This document shows positions 3,952 through 29,402 of a stretch of 32,000 nt of DNA, piece by piece. The stretch is from Coprobacillaceae bacterium. GTDB lineage: Bacteria > Bacillota_I > Bacilli_A > Erysipelotrichales > Coprobacillaceae. The notes beneath the pieces are model-generated. The model saw nothing but the letters and a program-made list of their open reading frames with translations, ran no database searches and was not told the origin of the DNA. The stretch is from contig OY776328.1 of assembly GCA_963675515.1 (NCBI GenBank), forward strand, positions 1,380,001-1,412,000. The letters run 5' to 3'. The position numbers were made by a program, and so were the translations under genes. The stretch's first letter is position 1, and each line of letters begins with the position of its first letter.

Positions 3952-5181
3952 ATGATGGCATATAAATGCGATGAAGCAAGAATGGAAGACAAGATCAGGA
4001 CATTTTCGAGATTTGGAGATACGGGTGCAGGTGGAATCACGCGCTTGTCGCTCTCAAAGGAAGCTCTTAAAGCAAGAGATGAGCTGGTAAAGAGATGTAA
4101 GGAATTGGGATTGAAAATCAAAACCGATGATATGGCCAATATATACGCCACTTTGCCAGGAAGTGAAGATCTGCCGGCAATTGTATCAGGGTCGCATATG
4201 GATTCAGTACGTTGTGGTGGAAACTACGATGGAATTCTAGGGGTGTTGACTCCCCTGGAGGCGATCGAAACAATCGTAAAAGAGAAAATTCCTCATCGCC
4301 ATCCAATCACCCTGATGGTCTGGACCAATGAAGAGGGGGCGCGTTTCGAGCCGGCGATGATGTCTTCGGGCGTGCTCACCGGTAAGTTTGACTTGGAAAC
4401 GATGCTCAAGTCCACGGACGAGGAAGGATGCACATTTGAAGAAGCGCTGGAGGCTTCGGGTTACCGGGGATCCAGTGAAAACCGATTGAATGCAAAGGAT
4501 TATTGTGCGGCAATCGAGTTGCATATTGAACAGGGACCGGTGTTGGAAAGTGAAGGGATTGATATAGGTGTTGTCGAGGGAGTTTGTGGCATGGTGAACT
4601 ATGAGTTCACATTCCTTGGCCAGGCAGGACATGCCGGGACAACTCCGATGCCATACCGTAAGGATTCCCTATATGCGGCGGTTAAGACAATTCAATATCT
4701 TCATGATGAATTTGACAAGCTTGATTCAAAACTTGTCTATACGACAGGTAAGATTTCAGCTCATCCAAACATCCATACGGTCATTCCGGATGTTGTGAAA
4801 TTCACCGTTGATGTCAGACATCAAGAACCTGAAGTGATCAAACAGGTGGTGGCAATCATCGAGGCGTTGCCCTTAGAGGTTGAAAAGTGCAAGGCTTCAT
4901 TTGAATTGGCTTGGTCACGGGATACGGTTCATTTTGCGCAAGACCTGGTTGATTGTGTGGAAGAAAGCGCGAAGGAGCTAGGACTTAGCAATATAAGAAT
5001 GTATTCGGGACCGGGTCACGATGCGCAATTTTTGTGTGAACTGATTCCGACATCGATGATCTTTGTTCCATCAATCGGGGGACATAGTCACTGCGAAATA
5101 GAAGAAACCACAGTGGAAGACTGCACAAACGGGGCTTCGGTATTGCTGAATGCGATGCTTAAAATTGATGCGATATATTAA
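3952..5181 (+). CDS. M20-family Zn-dependent amidase (N-carbamoyl-L-amino-acid / allantoate / beta-ureidopropionate amidohydrolase type)
   Basis: 409 aa with RBS aaaggagcgggg. GSHMDSVRCGGNYDGILGV, WTNEEGARF and GPGHDAQ are the characteristic blocks of the AmaB/AllC/HyuC M20 subgroup. Confidence 0.8.
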   Translation: MMAYKCDEARMEDKIRTFSRFGDTGAGGITRLSLSKEALKARDELVKRCKELGLKIKTDDMANIYATLPGSEDLPAIVSGSHMDSVRCGGNYDGILGVLTPLEAIETIVKEKIPHRHPITLMVWTNEEGARFEPAMMSSGVLTGKFDLETMLKSTDEEGCTFEEALEASGYRGSSENRLNAKDYCAAIELHIEQGPVLESEGIDIGVVEGVCGMVNYEFTFLGQAGHAGTTPMPYRKDSLYAAVKTIQYLHDEFDKLDSKLVYTTGKISAHPNIHTVIPDVVKFTVDVRHQEPEVIKQVVAIIEALPLEVEKCKASFELAWSRDTVHFAQDLVDCVEESAKELGLSNIRMYSGPGHDAQFLCELIPTSMIFVPSIGGHSHCEIEETTVEDCTNGASVLLNAMLKIDAIY

Positions 5182-5200
5182 TTTTTTGGGAGATGGAAGG

Positions 5201-6360
5201 ATGGAAGAATACAGACAATATGCAGACAAGGTGTTCGTCAATGGCAGGGTGCTCACAGTCAACGACACGGATGATGTAGTTGAAGCAGTGGCGATCAAAG
5301 GGAAATCCATCATAGCCGTTGGCAAGGAAACTGAAATCGAGAAATACATCAATCATGAAACAACTGTGATTGACCTTAAAGGAAGGAGTCTTGTACCGGG
5401 ATTCATAGACTCCCACATGCATTTCATGATGTATAGCTTGTTCTATAAAGCCACCATCGACATTGCCTACGATAAGGTCCAGTCGGTTGAAGGAATCAAG
5501 AAATTCATAAAAGAAGCGGTAGGTAATAAAAAACCCGGCGAATGGATCTGCTTATGGGGATATGACCATAACAAGCTATTGGAAAAACGGCACCCCACAA
5601 TCGAGGATCTGGATGAAGTGGCACCCGACAATCCGGTCCAATGTGTAAGATGCTGCGGCCATATGGGGGTATATAACTCCAGGGCATTTGAAATCGGTAA
5701 AATCACAAGTCCTGACCAATATGAGCCCGGTGAAGTTGTCGTTGATGAAAACGGGCAAATTACCGGATTGTTGAAGGAAACCCCTAACGATATCCTATGG
5801 AGTTATATCAAATACTCCGATGAGGAAATCATGGAGGGTTATAGGGCATTTGGCCAACTGATGCTCAAGTCGGGAATTACAAGCATTCATGATGCTGGAA
5901 CATATGGAGCCCAATATATCAAGGTTCTTCAGGATGTGATAATGGATGGGACCTTCCCGGTAAAAATGTATGCGATAATCTACAATGTTCTGGGCAAGGA
6001 ACACAGCAAGGAATGGATATATGATTTTATCAAAACAGGTATTCATACGGGAATGGGCAATGAACATTTCAAAATAGGTGCCGCCAAAATACTGTTGGAT
6101 GGAAGCTCCAGTGGCCCTTCAAGCGCGACCAGAGAGCCTTATTCCCATGATCCTGAGCTCAAGGGGCTATTGAACTGGAAACAAGAAGAGATCAATGAGA
6201 TATTCTTGGACGCCCAAAAGGCAGGTTTTCAATTGACCGCCCATGCAGTTGGCGATATGGCGGTTGAACAGGCTATCAATGGAATCGAGTACGCTTTGGA
6301 ACATTGTCCCAAGGAAAATCACCGCAACCGGATTGAGCATTGTGGAATCATCGATGAATC
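5201..6360 (+). pseudogene. 5' part of a third YtcJ-like amidohydrolase gene, interrupted by IS66 insertion
   Basis: Start taken at ATG 5201 (MEEYRQY..) behind RBS gggagatggaagg. The frame carries DSHMHF, CCGHMGVYNS, ILLDGSSSGPS..EPYSHD, HAVGD and HRNRIEHCGIIDES, then runs straight into the IS66 terminal repeat GTAAGCG at 6361. Confidence 0.9.
6353..6360. repeat. 8-bp target-site duplication GATGAATC (left copy) of IS66 copy 1
   Basis: The same octamer recurs at 9135-9142, immediately outside the other IS end. Confidence 0.9.
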
Positions 6361-6424
6361 GTAAGCGTCAAATAGAGCGGTGGAAGAATATTCTGATGCA
6401 AGGAAAAAGGAATCCGCGGACAAT

Positions 6425-8230
6425 TTATTTCTGTCTTTGGATTCCTTTTTTAAGTTCTTTGATTTCTTTGGCCGTCAGTTGGCGCAAATATTTGGGCAGG
6501 TCCTTGTTGTATGGTAATAGCTTTCTGATTTCGACCTCATCACTTGGATCGATGCTTGGTAATCTTTCCAATACGTACTCCATGTACATGTATGCTGACA
6601 ACCCATTCTCTTCGGCACTAAGTAGTAACGAGTAAATGATTGCCGCAGCTTGGGCTCCTTTGGGGCTGGTATAGAACTTGCAGCGATTTCTAGATACCAC
6701 AAATGGTCTGATAACTCTCTCGGCGCTTGAATTGTCGAACGGAACTTTTGGATTATTGAATACTTCACGGAATTCCTTCTCATGGTTCAATTCGTAATTA
6801 ATTGCCTTGATCAACGTAGGTTTCATATTCACTTCAGGTAGCAAGATTATTTCTTTAAGGTACGCTAAAAAATTGTCATAAATAGGCTTTACGATATCAT
6901 TTCGGCCCTTATGAACATACTCAAAATATTTAACTGGATTTTTGCCGTGTTTTGACTTAGCGGTCGTTTCAATCTTGTTTTTTGCTTCGAATATTTTCTG
7001 GTAATAACGATAGCACGTATATTCGTAACTTTTGCTTTTATCACTACCTTTTGGCAATACCTCAAGGGCTTTACGGAAATAACGGAAGGCGTGGACGTGG
7101 CAAAAACAGTTGGTGACATTATCAAGGGCCTCGTAGGCCCCATATGCATCGGTTACCAGGTAGTTCGAATAATCTCCGATGAAATCTTCGACAACACGTT
7201 TTGAGCGAGTGGGATCATAACGATATAAGATGATCGGCACATCATATTGGCAGGTTCTTACCACCCACATGTAGGATTTACTTTGAGCCGTCTTGCCCTC
7301 TTCATTTAAAATTTGGGTCGTGGTTTCGTCGCAGTGTATCACATTCATGGCCAACAGATCCTTGCGCATGCATTCGAACAGTAAACCCAGATGTACCGAG
7401 GCTTTAATCATCCAATTGGCCATATTTTGTCTAGGGATGACAACATCATTCTCCAGGAATCGTTTTTCCTGAGCGGCCAGGGGCAAACCCTTCAAATATT
7501 TCATATCCATTATATTCGCAATCAGCGAAGGTGAAGCAATGCTCCCCTTGATGACAGGTTGTCTGCCCGGAACTCTTTTATAAGATGACTTGCCGTCCAG
7601 GTTATGTTCCTGGCAAGCAACACATTCGTATACTGGAGTACGGTATATATTCATTTCCACTTTGGCTGGGGTATAGACGAGTTCCTTTCTTTCATCGTAC
7701 TTTTTTATTTTCATGGTTGTACCACAAAGGTCGCAGACATCGAAATTTTCTGGTGTCGGCTCGTCAATGATATTGGTTTTTAGGTGATCGTAGTTAATGT
7801 GCTTTTCTTTAGGGATTCTTACTTTTCTTTTGTACCCTTTGATTTCCTTGACTTCTATTTCTTCAGTCTCAGTTACCACACCAAAATCGATACCAATCAG
7901 ACTGAAAAGGTCGGGACCTTGATTGTATTCTTTTATATTATTTCTCTGAGAGGAATATCTGGCGTTTTCTAATATCTTTATATATTCGTTTTTCTGTTGC
8001 AGTTCCAATTTGCGTTCGTTGATTTCACTAATCAGCTTCTTATTTTCGGCAATCAAAGTCTTTTCTTTAGCAGTGAATTTCTTTTCTTTGGCAGCCAACA
8101 GCTCATTTTCTTTGATAAGTTTAACTTTTGAAATACGGTCGGATTCGATTTTCTCACAAAGCTCTTTTTCTCTATTTTTGAAAGCAGCAATCAGCTCTTC
8201 TTTAGACATATTTTCCATCAGCTTTATCAT
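6425..8230 (-). CDS. tnpC: IS66-family DDE transposase TnpC
   Basis: Start placed at MIKLMENMSK, behind gaggtgg, rather than at the longest-ORF start 8266. N-terminal coiled-coil-like Lys/Glu-rich region, CDLCG..CVACQ zinc-finger-like pair, HCDETT and TDAYGAY blocks. Confidence 0.85.
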   Translation of the reverse strand: MIKLMENMSKEELIAAFKNREKELCEKIESDRISKVKLIKENELLAAKEKKFTAKEKTLIAENKKLISEINERKLELQQKNEYIKILENARYSSQRNNIKEYNQGPDLFSLIGIDFGVVTETEEIEVKEIKGYKRKVRIPKEKHINYDHLKTNIIDEPTPENFDVCDLCGTTMKIKKYDERKELVYTPAKVEMNIYRTPVYECVACQEHNLDGKSSYKRVPGRQPVIKGSIASPSLIANIMDMKYLKGLPLAAQEKRFLENDVVIPRQNMANWMIKASVHLGLLFECMRKDLLAMNVIHCDETTTQILNEEGKTAQSKSYMWVVRTCQYDVPIILYRYDPTRSKRVVEDFIGDYSNYLVTDAYGAYEALDNVTNCFCHVHAFRYFRKALEVLPKGSDKSKSYEYTCYRYYQKIFEAKNKIETTAKSKHGKNPVKYFEYVHKGRNDIVKPIYDNFLAYLKEIILLPEVNMKPTLIKAINYELNHEKEFREVFNNPKVPFDNSSAERVIRPFVVSRNRCKFYTSPKGAQAAAIIYSLLLSAEENGLSAYMYMEYVLERLPSIDPSDEVEIRKLLPYNKDLPKYLRQLTAKEIKELKKGIQRQK

Positions 8231-8375
8231 CGAAATCCACCTCGTTTCTCTTTGAGAGTATACCATAAAAATGGCTGTAAGTCTTGATTTTACGGCAATT
8301 TCTTAAAGATGTGAATAACTTAAAAAGATATAAAAGAAACCCACAAATTATTGTGAATTACTCCTATATCTTTCG

Positions 8376-8735
8376 CTAAATTATTACTGAAATATCCTTG
8401 AACGCCCGCTTTTGTTCAATCTCCAGACCATCAAGCAGCCAGTTTAGCTGCCGCAAGTCAACGGTCATCGAGCTGATCTCATCTTGGGCCTTGGGCCAAT
8501 AGAATCGATCAGTGTTCAACAGCTTCTTGGAGTGGATGACAAAACCGTTTTTATCAAACTCCAACATCTTGATTGTCCGCTTGTTCCGGCTACAAAATAT
8601 GTAGAGATTATTGGCGGTTGGATCCAGGTAAAGATTGTGGCTCACCATGGCGCTCAATCCCGCATAACTTTTTCTTAAATCCGTTGCTCCGGGTACCAGA
8701 TAGATATTGTCGAAGTCCTCAAATTTAATCTTCAT
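8376..8735 (-). CDS. tnpB: IS66 Orf2 accessory protein (IS66-type TnpB; unrelated to IS605 TnpB)
   Basis: 119 aa. Overlaps the tnpA stop by 11 nt. The protein sequence is identical in both IS copies. Confidence 0.8.
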   Translation of the reverse strand: MKIKFEDFDNIYLVPGATDLRKSYAGLSAMVSHNLYLDPTANNLYIFCSRNKRTIKMLEFDKNGFVIHSKKLLNTDRFYWPKAQDEISSMTVDLRQLNWLLDGLEIEQKRAFKDISVII

Positions 8736-9057
8736 CGAGCAACCTGATAAGCTTGGCCAAAGTCACCAAATCCGTTGAATCATCAACTTTGATGCAGGCT
8801 TTACCGATGACGATTTCAAAACCATCATTCCGGATAGTTGGAACGCAGTCGACTAAGCTAAGTTTTACCAGCGGGCTGTTGACTTCGTTGGCATATTCGC
8901 TTACCCTGGATCTTTTCCGATACGGCTTCGAATATTTGTGGTAGCAAAAGGCATTAAAAGAAACGTCATTGGCTAAGCACCATTTCTTGATTGGTAAATC
9001 ACTATTGGCGGCATCTTCGAAAAACTGATGCCACTGGTCCTGAGAATATTGATTCAT
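8725..9057 (-). CDS. tnpA: IS66 Orf1 accessory protein TnpA
   Basis: Start placed at MNQYSQDQW, behind ggaggtg. First gene of the IS66 three-gene unit. Confidence 0.75.
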   Translation of the reverse strand: MNQYSQDQWHQFFEDAANSDLPIKKWCLANDVSFNAFCYHKYSKPYRKRSRVSEYANEVNSPLVKLSLVDCVPTIRNDGFEIVIGKACIKVDDSTDLVTLAKLIRLLDED

Positions 9058-9134
9058 ATCACACCTCCAAGTTGATGTGATCATTGTATCAACAAAAAGA
9101 AAGGAATCCTACCACCGCTCTATTTGGCGCGTAC

Positions 9135-9142: not shown

Positions 9143-9611
9143 ACTGGCCAGAAGAATCAAGGATTTGGGGATAATACCTATTTCAAATCCGGGTTTTTTA
9201 ACCATTAACGGCAGTGACTATAACACCTTTTATGGGGATAGGGTAAATTACATGTTTGCCACAAAAACCTATAAGGAAAATGGCATCATCACCGCGTTTG
9301 GTTCGGATTGCAGCGTTATAAATGAGAATCCGATGATCGGGCTATATGGAGCTATCACCAGGAAAGATATGGCAACAGGTGATATTTGTGGTGAGTCACA
9401 GAAAATAAGTCTCCTGGATGCGATCAGGTGCTACACCTATAATGGTGCCTATGCGAGCTTCGAAGAAAAGATCAAAGGTTCGATCGAGGTTGGCAAAGTG
9501 GCTGACTTGGTCGTGCTGTCCGAAGATATCTTGCAAATAGACAAGGAAAGCATAAAGGATGTAAAGGTCGATATGACAATCATCGATGGGAATATCCTTT
9601 ACAAAAGGTGA
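9135..9611 (+). pseudogene. 3' part of the IS66-split amidohydrolase gene
   Basis: After one TSD copy is removed, the frame continues ..IEHCGIIDES|LARRIKDLGIIPISNPGF... This parallels IEHCALTNESILQRVKDYSIVPVSNPAF in the paralog at 2-1186. C-terminal blocks GSDCSV and KGSIEVGKVADLVVLS are present. Confidence 0.9.
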
Positions 9612-9793
9612 TTCTTACTTTTATTAACTGGTCGAGAACACTCGCGACTTTAGTCGTGGAGATGAATCGACTTTTTTGTGACTCTTTTCAACTGTGTTCT
9701 ATTGGCTACATATATTGTTAAAATTATGGACTAAAAGTGCTTTAAAGCTGTAATTTTTTGCAACCATATGTTAAAATGTATATGAGGTGATAA

Positions 9794-10198
9794 ATGATGG
9801 CTGATATTAATTACGGACGTGGTTACGTCTATTCGATTCAATACCATCTGGTCTGGTGTGTGAAATACCGTCACGATATTTTGACTGGTCAAGTTGACGA
9901 TGATGTCAAGAAATTGTTGACTAAGATTGCAGCTGATAATGACATAAATATCATTGAAATGGAATCGGATAAGGACCATATCCACTTGCTTATCGATTGC
10001 AAGCCCCAACACCATATTCCCAGTATGGTAAAAGCATTCAAAGGGTTATCTGCAAGATTTCTGTTCCAGCAACACCCTGAGCTTAAAAGTCGTCTATGGA
10101 AAGGTCATTTGTGGAATCCCAGCTATTTCGTAGCCACCGTTAGTGATAATACTCAAAAGTAGATAATAGATTATATAAAAACTCAGAAGAAGAAATAA
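9794..10198 (+). pseudogene. tnpA: IS200/IS605 Y1 (HUH) transposase TnpA with an in-frame TAG at 10160-10162
   Basis: YHLVWCVKYR and the HUH motif DHIHLLI are present. The ORF stops at ..YFVATVSDNTQK(TAG). The same frame continues IIDYIKTQKKK(TAA), which is the expected C-terminal helix holding the catalytic Tyr (residue 127 if read through). Confidence 0.75.
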
Positions 10199-10199
10199 G

Positions 10200-11348
10200 G
10201 TGATGATGATGTTGCACCATAAGGCATACAAGTTCAGGATCTACCCTGATAGTGTACAGGTAATACTGATCTGTAAAACGATCGGATGTGCCCGATTTGT
10301 CTACAATCACTTTTTGAATTTGTGGAATGAGGAGTATGCTGGTACTGGAAAGGGTCTGTCTTACAATTCCTGCTCCGCCATGCTTCCTCAGATGAAACGG
10401 GATGAAAATACACAGTGGCTAAAAGAAGTAGACAGCATTGCCCTTCAATCATCGGTGAAGAATCTCTCCGATTCATTCGCAAGGTTCTTCACTAAGCAAA
10501 ACAGCCACCCGCGATACAAGAGCAAGAAGAATCCGGTTCAAAGCTACACCACCAAGAATGTTAACAACAGTATTGCCGTAATTGGCAAGTCGATCAAGCT
10601 GCCTAAGTTAGGTCTGGTAAGATTCGCCAAGAGCCGGGAGATAAAAGGCAGGATCATTAAAGCGACTATCCGGAAAAATCCCAGTGACAAATACTTCATT
10701 GCCGTTGTTGTTGAAGAAAAGATCGAGCAATTGCCCAAAACGAATTCGACAGTAGGTATTGATCTTGGCATCCGTGACTTTGCGATATTTTCAAATGGTA
10801 GAAAAGTCGCTAATCATAAGTTTACCAACCAAATGGAAAAGAAACTTATCCGCGAACAGAAAAAGCTGTCAAGACGGGCGCTCCTTGCCAAAAGCAAAGG
10901 AATCAATCTTCTTGGAGCAAAGAACTACCAGAAACAAAGACGCAAAGTGGCAGGGCTTCATGAAAAAGTAATGAACCAACGCAATGACTTTTTGAACAAG
11001 TTGACAACCCAGATCATCAAAAACCACGATGTAATCTGCATAGAAGACTTGAACACATTAGGAATGTTGCGTAATCATAGACTGGCTAAAAGCATATCTG
11101 ATGTTTCCTGGGCATCATTTGTGGATAAGCTCATCTACAAGGCTGAATGGTATGGCAGAGAAATCATCAAGGTGGACCGCTGGTATGAGTCCAGCCAGAT
11201 ATGCAATAAATGTGGCCACAAGGATGGCAAGAAACCACTCCACATCAGGGAATGGACTTGTCCTAATTGTGGCAGTACCAATGACCGAGACATAAATGCA
11301 AGCAAGAACATCCTGAAAGAAGGACTGCGCATAATAGCATCAACATAA
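10200..11348 (+). CDS. tnpB: IS605-type TnpB (RuvC-like RNA-guided endonuclease family), apparently intact
   Basis: HKAYKFRIYP N-terminus. RuvC triad contexts VGIDLGIRDF, ICIEDLNTLG and NDRDINASKN. Zinc finger CNKCGH..CPNCG. The true start may be any of ATG 10203/10206/10209, after SD-like aaggtg. Confidence 0.85.
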   Translation: MMMMLHHKAYKFRIYPDSVQVILICKTIGCARFVYNHFLNLWNEEYAGTGKGLSYNSCSAMLPQMKRDENTQWLKEVDSIALQSSVKNLSDSFARFFTKQNSHPRYKSKKNPVQSYTTKNVNNSIAVIGKSIKLPKLGLVRFAKSREIKGRIIKATIRKNPSDKYFIAVVVEEKIEQLPKTNSTVGIDLGIRDFAIFSNGRKVANHKFTNQMEKKLIREQKKLSRRALLAKSKGINLLGAKNYQKQRRKVAGLHEKVMNQRNDFLNKLTTQIIKNHDVICIEDLNTLGMLRNHRLAKSISDVSWASFVDKLIYKAEWYGREIIKVDRWYESSQICNKCGHKDGKKPLHIREWTCPNCGSTNDRDINASKNILKEGLRIIAST

Positions 11349-11400
11349 ACAACTACTTAACCGTAGGGACTACGGGGATAGCTTGGTAAAGAAGAGAAAC
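11349..11400 (+). ncRNA. Upstream fragment of the IS605 right-end / putative TnpB guide-RNA (omega/reRNA) scaffold, cut off by IS3
   Basis: Non-coding tail after the tnpB stop with hairpin ccgtag-gga-ctacgg (11361-11375). Its continuation is found after the IS3 at 12615. No covariance model was run. Confidence 0.3.
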
Positions 11401-11429
11401 TGGAAAGTCAACACTTTTCTAGACAATTT

Positions 11430-12285
11430 TTATAAGGACATCCTGTATTGTACGGGTGTTTTGTAATTAAGGCTCCCATGCTTCCTTTTGTTGTTGAACC
11501 AGTTGACATAATCATACAGTTCCAATGACAATTCGTCGATACTGCGGAATTGTCGATTGAATGCGAATTCTGTTTTGAGTATTTTGTACATTGATTCTGA
11601 TACTGCGTTATCAATCGGTTTACCTTTTGCACTCAACGATCTCTTGATTCCATTCAATGCCAATATCCTATCAATCATCTCGTTTTTGAACTCTGAGCCT
11701 CGGTCTGAATGAAATACTTCGACATCACTTAAATCACTTTTTATATCGTTTAATGCCTTAATAACCAAGTTGGCGTCTTTGTTTTGACCACTAGATTTAC
11801 CAACGATTTCACGATTGTATAAATCTATTATCAGACAAATATAGTTCCATTTTCCAGCCACCTTGATGTAGGTCAAGTCGCTGGTTAAATATTGCATTGG
11901 CCGCTCTGCTTGGAATTTTCTATTGATCAGATTTTCAATATCGTCATTATTTACTTTGCCATAATGCTTTGGTCTTTGCTTGATGGTGTATTTACTGATC
12001 AAGCCGTATTTGTCCATGATTTGAGCAATTTTTCTTCTGCTGGCAACCATATTCAAATCATCCAGGTCATCTTTTATCTTGCGTGTTCCATAATTCTTCT
12101 TGCTGTTTTTGAATGATTTTATTACTTCATCTTCAAGCTTCGAATCCACTTTACGCCCTTTGGGTTTGTAGTAGAGAGTTGCCCGAGAGATTTTCAAGAC
12201 TTTGCACATAGCGCTGATAGAGTATTTGTGTTGATTTGCAAAGATTACTTGTCTTTTCGTCCCATTATCAGCGCCGCTTGCTTTA
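11430..12285 (-). CDS. IS3 OrfB (DDE integrase domain); made as an OrfAB fusion by -1 frameshifting
   Basis: The -1 frame is open from the heptamer at 12281-12287 (FKASGADNGTKRQVIFANQHKYSISAMCKVLKISRATLYY..). DDE contexts SDLTYI, HSDRGSEF and NAVSESMYKILKTE. The longest ATG-initiated ORF is 11430-12209. Confidence 0.8.
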
Positions 12286-12538
12286 AAATATCATTTTCCA
12301 TCTTCAGTCGTTCGTTTTCTTTTTGGAGCTTGATAAGTTCCTTGTCATGATCTGATCGATTGTCGGCTTCAGTAAACGAACCCGTATCATTGAATCGTTT
12401 AACCCATTTATTGAACGCTGAAGCTGTCAAATCGTATTCACGGATTATTTCCGCTCTGGGTTTCCCATTGTTGTAAAGTTGAACCATTTTGATTCTGAAT
12501 TCATCGGTGTAAGTACGTTTAGGTCTGCGTTTTGTCAT
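12245..12538 (-). CDS. IS3 OrfA (HTH DNA-binding protein with leucine-zipper-like tail)
   Basis: Start placed at MTKRRPKRTYTDEF, behind gtggaggat. The C-terminus ELIKLQKENERLKMENDILKQAA is typical of IS3 OrfA. Confidence 0.8.
   Translation of the reverse strand: MTKRRPKRTYTDEFRIKMVQLYNNGKPRAEIIREYDLTASAFNKWVKRFNDTGSFTEADNRSDHDKELIKLQKENERLKMENDILKQAALIMGRKDK
12281..12287 (-). other. Candidate -1 programmed frameshift heptamer T TTA AAG
   Basis: In the orfA frame the codons read ..att tta aag.., which fits X XXY YYZ. It lies 12 codons before the orfA stop, and the -1 frame is open from here into orfB. Confidence 0.5.
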
Positions 12539-12614
12539 TTTGAATATCCTCCACAAATTTAACAAGATTTTATCATGTCCTTATAATCTTGTCTAATTTA
12601 TTGTAACCTATCCA

Positions 12615-12697
12615 AACCGCTGATTATGGTGGATGCACCATAATCAAGTAAGCTCTGTTCCCAAGAATCCCGTGACTTTCAGTCATGGGAGGTTCAA
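12615..12697 (+). ncRNA. Downstream fragment of the IS605 right end / putative TnpB guide-RNA scaffold
   Basis: Perfect 10-bp hairpin gattatggtg-gatg-caccataatc (12622-12645) and the right-end hairpin (12669-12690), ending at TCAA 12694-12697. By analogy, the guide would be the flanking nucleotides from 12698 (agcggctatcaaaacg..). Confidence 0.35.
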
Positions 12698-13029
12698 AGC
12701 GGCTATCAAAACGGTGATTATGTGCTTCAAACCATAGCATTCACAATATTTTCGAGTCTGATTTTACTATGTCCAAATGCTTGATTATTCAATTGCCCTG
12801 TTGTTTGGCCTAAACAGTAAGCTTATTGTACCTGGGCACAAATAACATTGAATCGCAGACCATTGATAATAATATGTATTTTAGATAATATATTTTTATC
12901 AATTAGGGACAGAGATTTGATTGATACTCTTTAGCTCCCAACCAGATGGTTATTGGATAAATACTGCAAAAATCATCTGCTTATTTGATAAATTATTTCT
13001 AAAACATATTGGTTAGATGGAGGAACACA

Positions 13030-26628: not shown

Positions 26629-26705
26629 GTACGCGCCAAATAGAGCGGTGGTAGGATTCCTTTCTTTTTGTTGATACAATGATCACATCAACTTGGAGGT
26701 GTGAT

Positions 26706-27038
26706 ATGAATCAATATTCTCAGGACCAGTGGCATCAGTTTTTCGAAGATGCCACCAATAGTGATTTACCAATCAAGAAATGGTGCTTAGCCAATGACGT
26801 TTCTTTTAATGCCTTTTGCTACCACAAATATTCGAAGCCGTATCGGAAAAGATCCAGGGTAAGCGAATGTGCCAACGAAGTCAACAGCCCGCTGATAAAA
26901 CTTAGCTTAGTCGACTGCGTTCCAACTATCCGGAATGATGGTTTTGAAATCGTCATCGGTAAAGCCTGCATCAAAGTTGATGATTCAACGGATTTGGTGA
27001 CTTTGGCCAAGCTTATCAGGTTGCTCGATGAAGATTAA
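26706..27038 (+). CDS. tnpA: IS66 Orf1 accessory protein TnpA
   Basis: ATG 26706, behind ggaggtg. Homologous to 8725-9057. Confidence 0.75.
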   Translation: MNQYSQDQWHQFFEDATNSDLPIKKWCLANDVSFNAFCYHKYSKPYRKRSRVSECANEVNSPLIKLSLVDCVPTIRNDGFEIVIGKACIKVDDSTDLVTLAKLIRLLDED

Positions 27039-27387
27039 ATTTGAGGACTTCGACAATATCTATCTGGTACCCGGAGCAACGGATTTAAGAAAAAGTTATG
27101 CGGGATTGAGCGCCATGGTGAGCCACAATCTTTACCTGGATCCAACCGCCAATAATCTCTACATATTTTGTAGCCGGAACAAGCGGACAATCAAGATGTT
27201 GGAGTTTGATAAAAACGGTTTTGTCATCCACTCCAAGAAGCTGTTGAACACTGATCGATTCTATTGGCCCAAGGCCCAAGATGAGATCAGCTCGATGACC
27301 GTTGACTTGCGGCAGCTAAACTGGCTGCTTGATGGTCTGGAGATTGAACAAAAGCGGGCGTTCAAGGATATTTCAGTAATAATTTAG
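27028..27387 (+). CDS. tnpB: IS66 Orf2 accessory protein (IS66-type TnpB)
   Basis: Identical protein to 8376-8735. 11-nt overlap with tnpA. Confidence 0.8.
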   Translation: MKIKFEDFDNIYLVPGATDLRKSYAGLSAMVSHNLYLDPTANNLYIFCSRNKRTIKMLEFDKNGFVIHSKKLLNTDRFYWPKAQDEISSMTVDLRQLNWLLDGLEIEQKRAFKDISVII

Positions 27388-27532
27388 CGAAAGATATAGG
27401 AGTAATTCACAATAATTTGTGGGTTTCTTTTATATCTTTTTAAGTTATTCACATCTTTAATAAATTGCCGTAAAATCAAGACTTACAGCCATTTTTATGG
27501 TATACTCTCAAAGAGAAACGAGGTGGATTTCG

Positions 27533-29338
27533 ATGATAAAGCTGATGGAAAATATGTCTAAAGAAGAGCTGATTGCTGCTTTCAAAAATAGAGAAAAAGA
27601 GCTTTGTGAGAAAATCGAATCCGACCGTATTTCAAAAGTTAAACTTATCAAAGAAAATGAGTTGTTGGCTGCCAAAGAAAAGAAATTCACTGCTAAAGAA
27701 AAGACTTTGATCGCCGAAAATAAGAAGCTGATTAGTGAAATCAACGAACGCAAATTGGAACTGCAACAGAAAAACGAATATATCAAGATATTAGAAAACG
27801 CCCGATATTCCTCTCAGAGAAATAATATAAAAGAATACAATCAAGGTCCCGACCTTTTCAGTCTGATTGGTATCGATTTTGGTGTGGTAACTGAGACTGA
27901 AGAAATAGAAGTCAAGGAAATCAAAGGGTACAAAAGAAAAGTAAGAATCCCTAAAGAAAAGCACATTAACTACGATCACCTAAAAACCAATATCATTGAC
28001 GAGCCGACACCAGAAAATTTCGATGTCTGCGACCTTTGTGGTACAACCATGAAAATAAAAAAGTACGATGAAAGAAAGGAACTCGTCTATACCCCAGCTA
28101 AAGTGGAAATGAATATCTACCGTACTCCGGTATACGAATGTGTTGCTTGCCAGGAACATAACCTGGACGGCAAATCATCTTATAAAAGAGTGCCCGGCAG
28201 ACAACCTGTCATCAAGGGGAGCATTGCTTCACCTTCGCTGATTGCGAATATAATGGATATGAAATATTTGAAGGGTTTGCCCCTGGCCGCTCAGGAAAAA
28301 CGATTCCTGGAGAATGATGTTGTCATCCCTAGACAAAATATGGCCAATTGGATGATTAAAGCCTCGGTACATCTGGGTTTACTGTTCGAATGCATGCGCA
28401 AGGATCTGTTGGCCATGAATGTGATACACTGCGACGAAACCACGACCCAAATTTTAAATGAAGAGGGCAAGACGGCCCAAAGTAAATCCTACATGTGGGT
28501 GGTAAGAACCTGCCAATATGATGTGCCGATTATCTTATATCGTTATGATCCTACTCGTTCAAAACGTGTTATCGAAGATTTCATCGGAGATTATTCGAAC
28601 TACCTGGTAACCGATGCCTATGGGGCCTACGAGGCCCTTGATAATGTCACAAACTGTTTTTGCCACGTCCACGCCTTCCGTTATTTCCGTAAAGCCCTTG
28701 AGGTATTGCCAAAAGGTAGTGATAAAAGCAAAAGTTACGAATATACGTGCTATCGTTATTACCAGAAAATATTCGAAGCAAAAAACAAGATTGAAACGAC
28801 CGCTAAGTCAAAACACAGCAAAAATCCAGTTAATTATTTTGAGTATGTTCATAAGGGCCGAAATGATATCGTAAAGCCTATTTATGACAATTTTTTAACG
28901 TACCTAAAAAAAATAATCCTGCTGCCTGAAGTGAATATGAAACCTACGTTGATTACGGCAATTAAATACGAATTGAATCATGAGAAGGAATTCCGTGAAG
29001 TATTCAATAATCCAAAAGTTCCGTTCGACAATTCAAGCGCCGAGAGAGTTATCAGACCATTTGTGGTATCTAGAAATCGCTGCAAGTTCTATACCAGCCC
29101 CAAAGGAGCCCAAGCTGCGGCAATCATCTACTCGTTACTACTAAGTGCTGAAGAGAACGGGTTGTCAGCATACATGTACATGGAGTACGTATTGGAAAGA
29201 TTACCAAGCATCGATCCAAGTGATGAGGTCGAAATCAGAAAGCTATTACCATACAACAAGGACCTGCCCAAATATTTGCGCCAACTGACGGCCAAAGAAA
29301 TCAAAGAACTCAAATTAGGAATCCAAAGACAGAAATAA
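27533..29338 (+). CDS. tnpC: IS66-family DDE transposase TnpC
   Basis: ATG 27533, behind gaggtgg. A possible extended -10 (TGgTATACT, 27498-27506) lies upstream. Same motifs as copy 1. Confidence 0.85.
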   Translation: MIKLMENMSKEELIAAFKNREKELCEKIESDRISKVKLIKENELLAAKEKKFTAKEKTLIAENKKLISEINERKLELQQKNEYIKILENARYSSQRNNIKEYNQGPDLFSLIGIDFGVVTETEEIEVKEIKGYKRKVRIPKEKHINYDHLKTNIIDEPTPENFDVCDLCGTTMKIKKYDERKELVYTPAKVEMNIYRTPVYECVACQEHNLDGKSSYKRVPGRQPVIKGSIASPSLIANIMDMKYLKGLPLAAQEKRFLENDVVIPRQNMANWMIKASVHLGLLFECMRKDLLAMNVIHCDETTTQILNEEGKTAQSKSYMWVVRTCQYDVPIILYRYDPTRSKRVIEDFIGDYSNYLVTDAYGAYEALDNVTNCFCHVHAFRYFRKALEVLPKGSDKSKSYEYTCYRYYQKIFEAKNKIETTAKSKHSKNPVNYFEYVHKGRNDIVKPIYDNFLTYLKKIILLPEVNMKPTLITAIKYELNHEKEFREVFNNPKVPFDNSSAERVIRPFVVSRNRCKFYTSPKGAQAAAIIYSLLLSAEENGLSAYMYMEYVLERLPSIDPSDEVEIRKLLPYNKDLPKYLRQLTAKEIKELKLGIQRQK

Positions 29339-29402
29339 ATTGTCCGCGGATTCCTTTTTCCTTGCATCAGAATATTCTTCCACCGCTCTATTTGACGCTT
29401 AC

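Follow-up and report, generated by a model that had tools for sequence, protein, structure and literature searches.

An IS3-family insertion sequence nested in the right end of an ISDra2-like TnpB element probably breaks the guide RNA of its host copy

The closest described system to the locus analysed here is ISDra2 of Deinococcus radiodurans, the omega-RNA of which has a 116-nt core in which (i) stems 2 and 3a are bound by the RuvC domain, (ii) a pseudoknot pairs positions -105 to -103 with -5 to -3 and includes the non-canonical pairs -106G:-2A and -102U:-6G, (iii) a dispensable stem 3b occupies -70 to -49, and (iv) stem 4 carries a UUUA loop at -20 to -17 (PMC10097598). Here we analyse 32,000 nucleotides of a Coprobacillaceae bacterium (assembly GCA_963675515.1, contig OY776328.1, positions 1,380,001 to 1,412,000; hereafter the window, in which all coordinates are counted) that contain an ISDra2-like element of the IS200/IS605 family, with the genes tnpA and tnpB, and a complete insertion sequence (IS) of the IS3 family. 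Nested insertion sequences (IS-in-IS) are a common route of IS decay. Combining comparative, structural and protein data, we consider it highly probable that the locus is a nested IS insertion that breaks the copy's own guide RNA, and that the host element is decaying.

The element resembles ISDra2 in several respects: (i) TnpA and TnpB are homologous, the gene order is the same and hairpins are present at both ends; (ii) insertion is 3' of a pentanucleotide; (iii) the scaffold is ~120 nt long, with the window end GGUUCAA (GUUCAA) and with GGGAU (GGAGAU in relatives, GGRAU type) at -106 to -102; (iv) a variable inner hairpin at about -77 to -51 lies roughly at the position of stem 3b; and (v) the terminal hairpin has a UUUA/UUCA-type loop. 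It differs in its target-adjacent motif (TAM), which is TTTAT in the window and TTGAT in ISDra2, and in its 5' hairpin, which is arranged otherwise than stem 1 of ISDra2. Also unlike ISDra2, the window TnpB has no C-terminal extension and the scaffold core therefore lies wholly after the stop codon; finally, the window copy is broken by the IS3 and has a nonsense codon in tnpA. Compared with other nested IS insertions, the locus shares the exact duplication at the junctions, the inactivation of the host element and an IS-rich neighbourhood, whereas the insertion hits the guide-RNA scaffold and not the transposase gene. The features on which the argument depends are:

9625-12697, plus strand: IS200/IS605-family element (ISDra2-like), with the left end, tnpA, tnpB and the right end; 1856 bp without the insert
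10200-11348, plus strand: tnpB, RNA-guided nuclease; intact open reading frame (ORF) with a likely start at the ATG at 10206, giving 380 aa
11357-11400, plus strand: 5' 44 nt of the omega-RNA scaffold, with hairpin CCGUAG/CUACGG, candidate pseudoknot strand GGGAU and 5' strands CUUGG and AGAG
11398-11400: left copy of the AAC target-site duplication; relatives hold a single AAC
11401-12614, minus strand: complete IS3-family insertion sequence of 1214 bp, beginning with TGGAAAG and ending with CTATCCA (TG..CA)
11401-11441 and 12575-12614: imperfect inverted repeats of the IS3
12615-12617: right copy of the AAC target-site duplication
12618-12697, plus strand: IS605 right end with the 3' 80 nt of the omega-RNA scaffold, comprising the variable hairpin, 3' strands CUCU and CCAAG, the terminal hairpin and GGUUCAA
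12621-12647, plus strand: variable inner hairpin of the scaffold
12668-12690, plus strand: right-end hairpin, presumed to bind TnpA and identical with the terminal hairpin of the scaffold
12698-12713, plus strand: predicted 16-nt guide, flank sequence AGCGGCTATCAAAACG, positioned according to the ISDra2 omega-RNA architecture (PMC10097598)

Removal of the IS3 together with one AAC fuses position 11400 to 12618, and this joined sequence was compared with 77 loci encoding TnpB relatives. The fusion gives AAGAGAAAC followed directly by CGCTG, a string that is unbroken in uninterrupted relatives, and more than 50 of the 77 loci align across the junction without a break. All loci in a multiple alignment of 18 have a contiguous AAGAG-AAAC-CGCTG with a single AAC; in the same alignment the homology ends at GAGAGGTTCAA (GGTTCAA, window position 12697), after which the flanks are unrelated. 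The right end of a closer relative (L078), in which TnpB is 92% identical to the window protein and a TnpA of 134 aa is intact, is uninterrupted and 92% identical to the joined sequence. In all uninterrupted relatives the 80 nt that follow the IS3 in the window are conserved and contiguous with the 44 nt upstream of it, and this contiguity is, judged from the sequences compared, far above chance. A first-pass annotation of the window had placed the IS3 within the right end and guide-RNA region of the IS605 element and had proposed that uninterrupted copies with a right end before 11400 would speak against this; such a right end was looked for in the relatives and not found, the homology stopping only at 12697. 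The anatomy described there (tnpB, a 1214-bp IS3 with TG..CA ends and intact orfA and orfB, the AAC duplication and a distance of 52 nt from the tnpB stop to the IS3) is borne out to the base. The inverted repeats, which were given as roughly 40 bp, were found by gapped local alignment; they span 41 nt, 29 of them identical, and contain a single gap, which hides them from plain repeat finding.

The second line of evidence is that the joined sequence restores a conserved RNA structure. For the 124 nt between 11357 and the right end, an alignment with 17 relatives (A1) was made and a consensus fold was calculated with RNAalifold. It comprises (i) the 5' hairpin CCGUAG/CUACGG, (ii) a two-segment central helix, CUUGG/CCAAG and AGAG/CUCU, around the variable hairpin, and (iii) the terminal hairpin, and the restored window scaffold has a folding energy of -49.4 kcal/mol (z = -5.3). 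A covariance model built from A1 (R1) finds full-length matches of 79-147 bits directly after tnpB in 67 of the 77 loci, 50 of them in loci outside model building. In the window the same model finds only two half-matches, one on either side of the IS3, at 11357-11465 (39 bits; the homologous part is 11357-11400 only) and at 12559-12697 (47 bits), and no other copy of the scaffold in the 32 kb. Among 38 diverse matches, 96.5% of the cells are standard pairs, compared with 32-54% when the partners are slid, and 15 of 32 pairs have compensatory changes on both sides, values that were reached by none of 500 shuffles; the alignment of the 38 matches is fitted to the model, which favours structure, and the independent RNAalifold result agrees with it. 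The candidate pseudoknot strands, GGUUCAA at the 3' end and GGGAU (GGAGAU in relatives) ~100 nt upstream, are nearly invariant and thus uninformative for covariation. In total, a conserved structured scaffold extends from the 3' end of tnpB to the right-end boundary, as in an omega-RNA, and is split by the IS3 in the window copy. The continuous, hairpin-rich right end that had been predicted to result from removal of the IS3 and one AAC is in this way recovered as a 124-nt fold with covariation support, and the covariance-model scan that had been suggested as a check gives the 67 full-length matches in the relatives and the two halves flanking the IS3 in the window. The flanks diverge from the equivalent of position 12698 in all relatives, where the guide is predicted to begin; its length of 16 nt is assumed from ISDra2.

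The IS3 is inserted between positions -81 and -80 of the scaffold (columns 47 and 48 of A1), in an internal loop that has the AGAG strand on one side and the variable inner hairpin on the other. The 44 nt that are still joined to tnpB hold the candidate pseudoknot strand as well as the 5' hairpin and, for each segment of the central helix, its 5' strand. The guide and the remainder of the scaffold (inner hairpin, terminal hairpin, GGUUCAA strand and both 3' strands) are displaced 1217 bp downstream. Two further elements inside the IS3, both of them consensus matches only, bear on what may be transcribed from the two halves:

11442-11456, plus strand: terminator-like hairpin and T-run just inside the IS3, 42 nt in
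12559-12587, plus strand: sigma-70-like site TTAACA-17-TATAAT in the left end of the IS3, directed outward towards the 3' scaffold fragment

The state of the two genes of the host element is different. tnpA is a pseudogene:

9794-10198, plus strand: tnpA, Y1 HUH transposase pseudogene; the open frame is 9794-10162

Its product matches Pfam Y1_Tnp (E 9e-39) and NCBIfam NF033573 (IS200/IS605 transposase; 140 bits). At codon 123 (10160-10162), which encodes glutamine in six relatives, the window has a stop by change of CAG to TAG, four codons before the catalytic tyrosine, and beyond the TAG 11 further codons are open and read IIDYIKTQKKK. If translation is continued past the stop, the product aligns to ISDra2 TnpA (2xm3) with E 7e-47, and Y127 falls on Y132, the catalytic tyrosine of ISDra2 TnpA. 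The window TnpA is truncated ahead of its active-site residue. By analogy with ISDra2, TnpA activity would be lost and the copy would be unable to move itself, and since the nonsense codon precedes the catalytic tyrosine, we regard the host element as decaying.

TnpB, on the other hand, looks functional from its sequence. It matches NCBIfam NF038281 (IS200_TnpB) with 547.7 bits against a cut-off of 425 and the ISDra2 TnpB structures 8h1j and 8bf8 with E 1e-87; the RuvC triad D188, E282 and D364 aligns to D191, E278 and D361 of ISDra2, and the CxxC..CxxC zinc finger is kept in the same alignment. The protein is 91-94% identical to six paralogs. At positions that are invariant in seven close paralogs it has three private substitutions only (G161D, E237G and L250G); the positions of G161D and E237G are also invariant in a more distant paralog (P0008), which has R at the position of L250G. 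The description of this TnpB as otherwise intact accordingly holds for the RuvC triad, the zinc finger and the ORF, but not for the host element, in which tnpA has a nonsense codon.

Together, these data suggest a succession of events in which (i) an ISDra2-like IS200/IS605 element settled 3' of TTTAT (9625-12697), (ii) an active multi-copy IS3 later transposed into its right end and duplicated AAC, (iii) the scaffold was thereby split into 44 nt and 80 nt, the tnpB transcript now presumably running into antisense IS3 sequence and the terminator-like hairpin, (iv) the window copy would most likely no longer make a contiguous guide RNA of its own, as far as its anatomy indicates, and (v) the copy would now be non-autonomous and decaying, with a tnpB ORF that is merely still open. 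If so, the window TnpB could work only with omega-RNAs supplied by sister copies in the same genome. Similarly, the IS605::IS3 composite of 3.07 kb could move only if a sister TnpA acts on its end hairpins. Both end hairpins and both boundary motifs of the IS605 copy are still intact, and mobilisation in trans is therefore conceivable.

Several points weigh against this scenario. The tnpB ORF has no disabling mutation, and decay of tnpB itself is therefore unsupported. We infer the loss of the guide RNA from the anatomy of the locus, and likewise the guide-RNA regions of the sister copies and their membership in the genome of the window. In addition, the 3' fragment of the scaffold might be expressed, since a strong promoter-like site in the IS3 points towards it.

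The last point leads to an alternative in which the guide RNA is split and the locus still active. The 5' 44 nt would form a tracr-like tail on the tnpB transcript, with termination at the hairpin of 11442-11456, a proposal to which we assign only a slight probability. The same slight probability applies to its counterpart, in which a cr-like RNA consisting of the 3' 80 nt and the guide would be started at 12559-12587 and the two halves would pair in trans on TnpB via CUUGG/CCAAG, AGAG/CUCU and the pseudoknot. The sigma-70-like site agrees with the consensus at 11 of 12 positions, points outward at a distance of 27 nt from the IS3 end and is the only such match in the window, with ~0.1 expected per 2 kb; ~1.5 matches of such quality are nonetheless expected by chance in 32 kb, and the site belongs to a palindrome (12555-12572 / 12582-12599), of which it forms one arm and a promoter-like site for orfA the other, so that it is perhaps a by-product. 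The idea, raised in the first-pass annotation, that the 3' fragment may be driven from inside the IS3 has this single strong sigma-70 consensus match as its sole basis. The terminator-like hairpin lies just inside the IS3 on the plus strand, and the break separates the two strands of conserved helices in such a way that complementarity in trans exists. However, RNAcofold of the two halves does not give the native helices, and its gain of -8.4 kcal/mol is equalled by 22 of 200 shuffles, leaving annealing of the scaffold halves in trans unsupported. The splitting of an omega-RNA into tracrRNA (trans-activating CRISPR RNA) and crRNA (CRISPR RNA) has been discussed as a route to type V CRISPR, but the boundary between the crRNA-like and tracrRNA-like parts of the ISDra2 omega-RNA is the loop of stem 4 at -20 to -17, whereas the scaffold in the window is split at -80 (PMC10097598; reviews). 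As in the RNA splitting of TranC/Cas12, the scaffold in the window is physically divided, its 5' part being linked to the nuclease and its 3' part to the guide; the window differs in this position of the split and in having no CRISPR array. Moreover, the dead tnpA indicates that this copy is no longer maintained.

Alternatively, the guide RNA could still be made as a single transcript of ~1.35 kb, in which the antisense IS3 would be a giant insertion beside a dispensable inner hairpin and the flanking helices would still close. The distal stem 3b of ISDra2 can be deleted without loss of activity, so that the region enclosed by the helix tolerates change; in the window, however, the IS3 interrupts the junction 5' of the inner hairpin and leaves the hairpin loop untouched, helices of 4-5 bp closing over 1.2 kb are unfavourable, a terminator-like hairpin is met 42 nt into the IS3, and such a transcript would collide head-on with expression of orfAB. 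We consider this model even less probable than a split guide. Lower still is the probability that the IS3 was misplaced by repeat mis-assembly. The IS3 is multi-copy in the genome, a setting in which repeats are mis-joined, but the junctions are exact, the 3-bp duplication is perfect and of a sequence that is single in relatives, and each flank is half of a single conserved 124-nt unit, an arrangement that a chimeric join would not yield. The weakest alternative, an IS3 outside the IS605 element with 12618-12697 as unrelated flank beyond a right end before 11400, has a negligible probability: nothing was found in its favour, and it is refuted by the contiguity of the 80 nt and the 44 nt in all uninterrupted relatives, in which divergence begins only after TTCAA.

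Given the nested insertion into the scaffold as the favoured interpretation, each of the two elements is a new member of a known family, and their arrangement needs no new mechanism. The significance attached to the locus in the first-pass annotation, in which it was presented as a natural uncoupling of TnpB from its RNA, was overrated: the locus is a routine case of one IS inserted into another, and both elements probably exist in many copies in this genome. The value of the locus is mainly for annotation, as a genuine yet ordinary example of decaying mobile elements nested in one another: a tnpB that is still open is no guarantee that the RNA-guided nuclease locus works, and copies of this sort would be miscounted wherever intact TnpB is surveyed by ORF alone. 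The locus would be informative about the transition from single omega-RNAs to dual tracrRNA/crRNA guides only if both RNA halves were expressed and functional. A split guide would then be a present-day example of the splitting that has been proposed as the origin of tracrRNA and crRNA in type V CRISPR, a process in which, according to reviews citing Jin et al. 2025, an omega-RNA reportedly split into the two RNAs.

The inner element has the properties of the IS3 family:

12245-12538, minus strand: orfA of the IS3, intact, with its ATG at 12538
11430-12209, minus strand: orfB of the IS3, intact
12281-12287, minus strand: slippery heptamer T-TTA-AAG, in the correct frame in orfA

A -1 shift at the heptamer gives a full-length OrfAB of 369 aa, which matches the whole of NCBIfam NF033516 (IS3 family transposase; positions 1-369 of 369) with 310.6 bits against a cut-off of 160, and the proteins match Pfam rve, rve_2, rve_3, HTH_21 and HTH_Tnp_1. 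The element thus combines a DDE (rve) transposase made from OrfA and OrfB by a -1 frameshift with TG..CA inverted repeats and a 3-bp duplication and, at 1214 bp, shares with other IS3 elements the imperfect repeats of ~40 bp, the slippery heptamer and the full NF033516 match. Its DNA identity with annotated IS3-family elements from Firmicute plasmids is only 65-69%, which makes it a member of the family not described before. The 90% cluster of OrfB contains six different OrfB sequences on one contig of 2,881,239 bp, presumed to be the source genome, and the OrfB of the window is listed there; the six TnpB paralogs presumably lie on the same contig as these OrfB variants. These sequences suggest that the IS3 and the TnpB element are probably both multi-copy in the source genome and that the IS3 has probably been active recently. 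Further IS3 copies with 99.6% and 98.4% identical DNA are present in two public sequencing runs. Targeting of TnpB right ends by the IS3 was considered and rejected, as these two copies have unrelated flanks without similarity to the right end. Exact-pattern scans of metagenome contigs with the inner hairpin and with the IS3 end gave no match.

The boundaries of the outer element could also be placed to the base:

9620-9624, plus strand: TTTAT, TAM and left cleavage site, abutting the IS605 left end on its 5' side
9625-9793, plus strand: IS605 left end and region upstream of tnpA, kept in relatives
9641-9661, plus strand: imperfect subterminal hairpin of the left end, CTCGCGAC-TTTA-GTCGTGGAG, which resembles the right-end hairpin

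TTTAT directly precedes the start of the homology in the window and in 5 relatives (6/6 loci), the upstream flanks being otherwise unrelated, and the covariance model built on the right end matches the left end weakly at 9576-9666. The right end stops at TTCAA in all 18 aligned loci, which places the window boundary at 12697. The outer element therefore has subterminal imperfect hairpins at both ends and a fixed short motif 5' of the insertion, and it has neither terminal inverted repeats nor a target duplication, as is required of the IS200/IS605 family. The family of ISDra2-like elements is widespread in Firmicutes, and base-exact boundaries, a TAM (TTTAT), a scaffold and a predicted guide are now given for it.

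The window TnpB (10206-11348) is identical to one paralog (P0001) over its first ~90 residues and to another (P0003) over its last ~95, a mosaic pattern that suggests recombination or gene conversion among TnpB copies. No exact match to the window TnpB, with three alternative starts, was found in the protein collection, though the six paralogs are present there; the exact-protein look-up of a neighbouring dehydrogenase gave no match.

At the gathering threshold, Rfam gave no match in the window, and on the basis of the Rfam scans no curated omega-RNA family covers the ISDra2-like element of the window. In a scan of nine relatives at a permissive threshold, six uninterrupted ones had matches to the full model (1-122) of RF02841 (Ref70) with 28-36 bits, far under its gathering score of 115. 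These sub-threshold matches, the only ones on the right end, lie exactly on the right end/guide-RNA region:

L060, 4155-4286: sub-threshold Ref70 match
L011, 4148-4282: sub-threshold Ref70 match
L001, 4151-4296: sub-threshold Ref70 match
L028, 4140-4271: sub-threshold Ref70 match
L006, 4154-4273: sub-threshold Ref70 match
L004, 4146-4278: sub-threshold Ref70 match

Ref70 (Enterococcus sRNA 70) probably represents the omega-RNA of a related TnpB element in Enterococcus; a literature search found no paper mentioning 'Ref70'.

A second subtype of right end occurs in Enterococcus-type loci (L015, L018, L028, L046 and others; e.g. L028:4142-4289). The first ~95 nt of the scaffold are common to both subtypes, and the terminal hairpin of the second is different and ~27 nt longer (model matches of 148 nt). 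This subtype goes together with a different type of TnpA, with ~30% identity to the window TnpA. In a relative from Candidatus Enterococcus wittei (L007:4036-4118), tnpB is truncated near residue 368, and of the right end just the final ~27 nt come after it; the guide-RNA scaffold is largely deleted in this sequence, which is another route to the same loss. In the Oceanobacillus locus L004, a T-box leader match at 2133-2408 reaches 86.7 bits, slightly short of the gathering score of 93; this match is situated upstream of a degraded tnpA and appears unrelated to the IS3 and TnpB.

The neighbourhood of the composite contains two further insertions, which belong to the IS66 family and are located at 6361-9134 (minus strand) and 26629-29402 (plus strand). 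They are in inverted orientation and 98.6% identical over 2774 bp, and each carries genes for proteins of 119, 119 and 613 aa. A composite transposon formed by the two inverted copies was rejected, since each copy has its own 8-bp duplication (GATGAATC and ATCTGTGT). Removal of the first copy restores the ORF of a 559-aa amidohydrolase (5150-6360 and 9143-9611) just upstream of the IS605 element.

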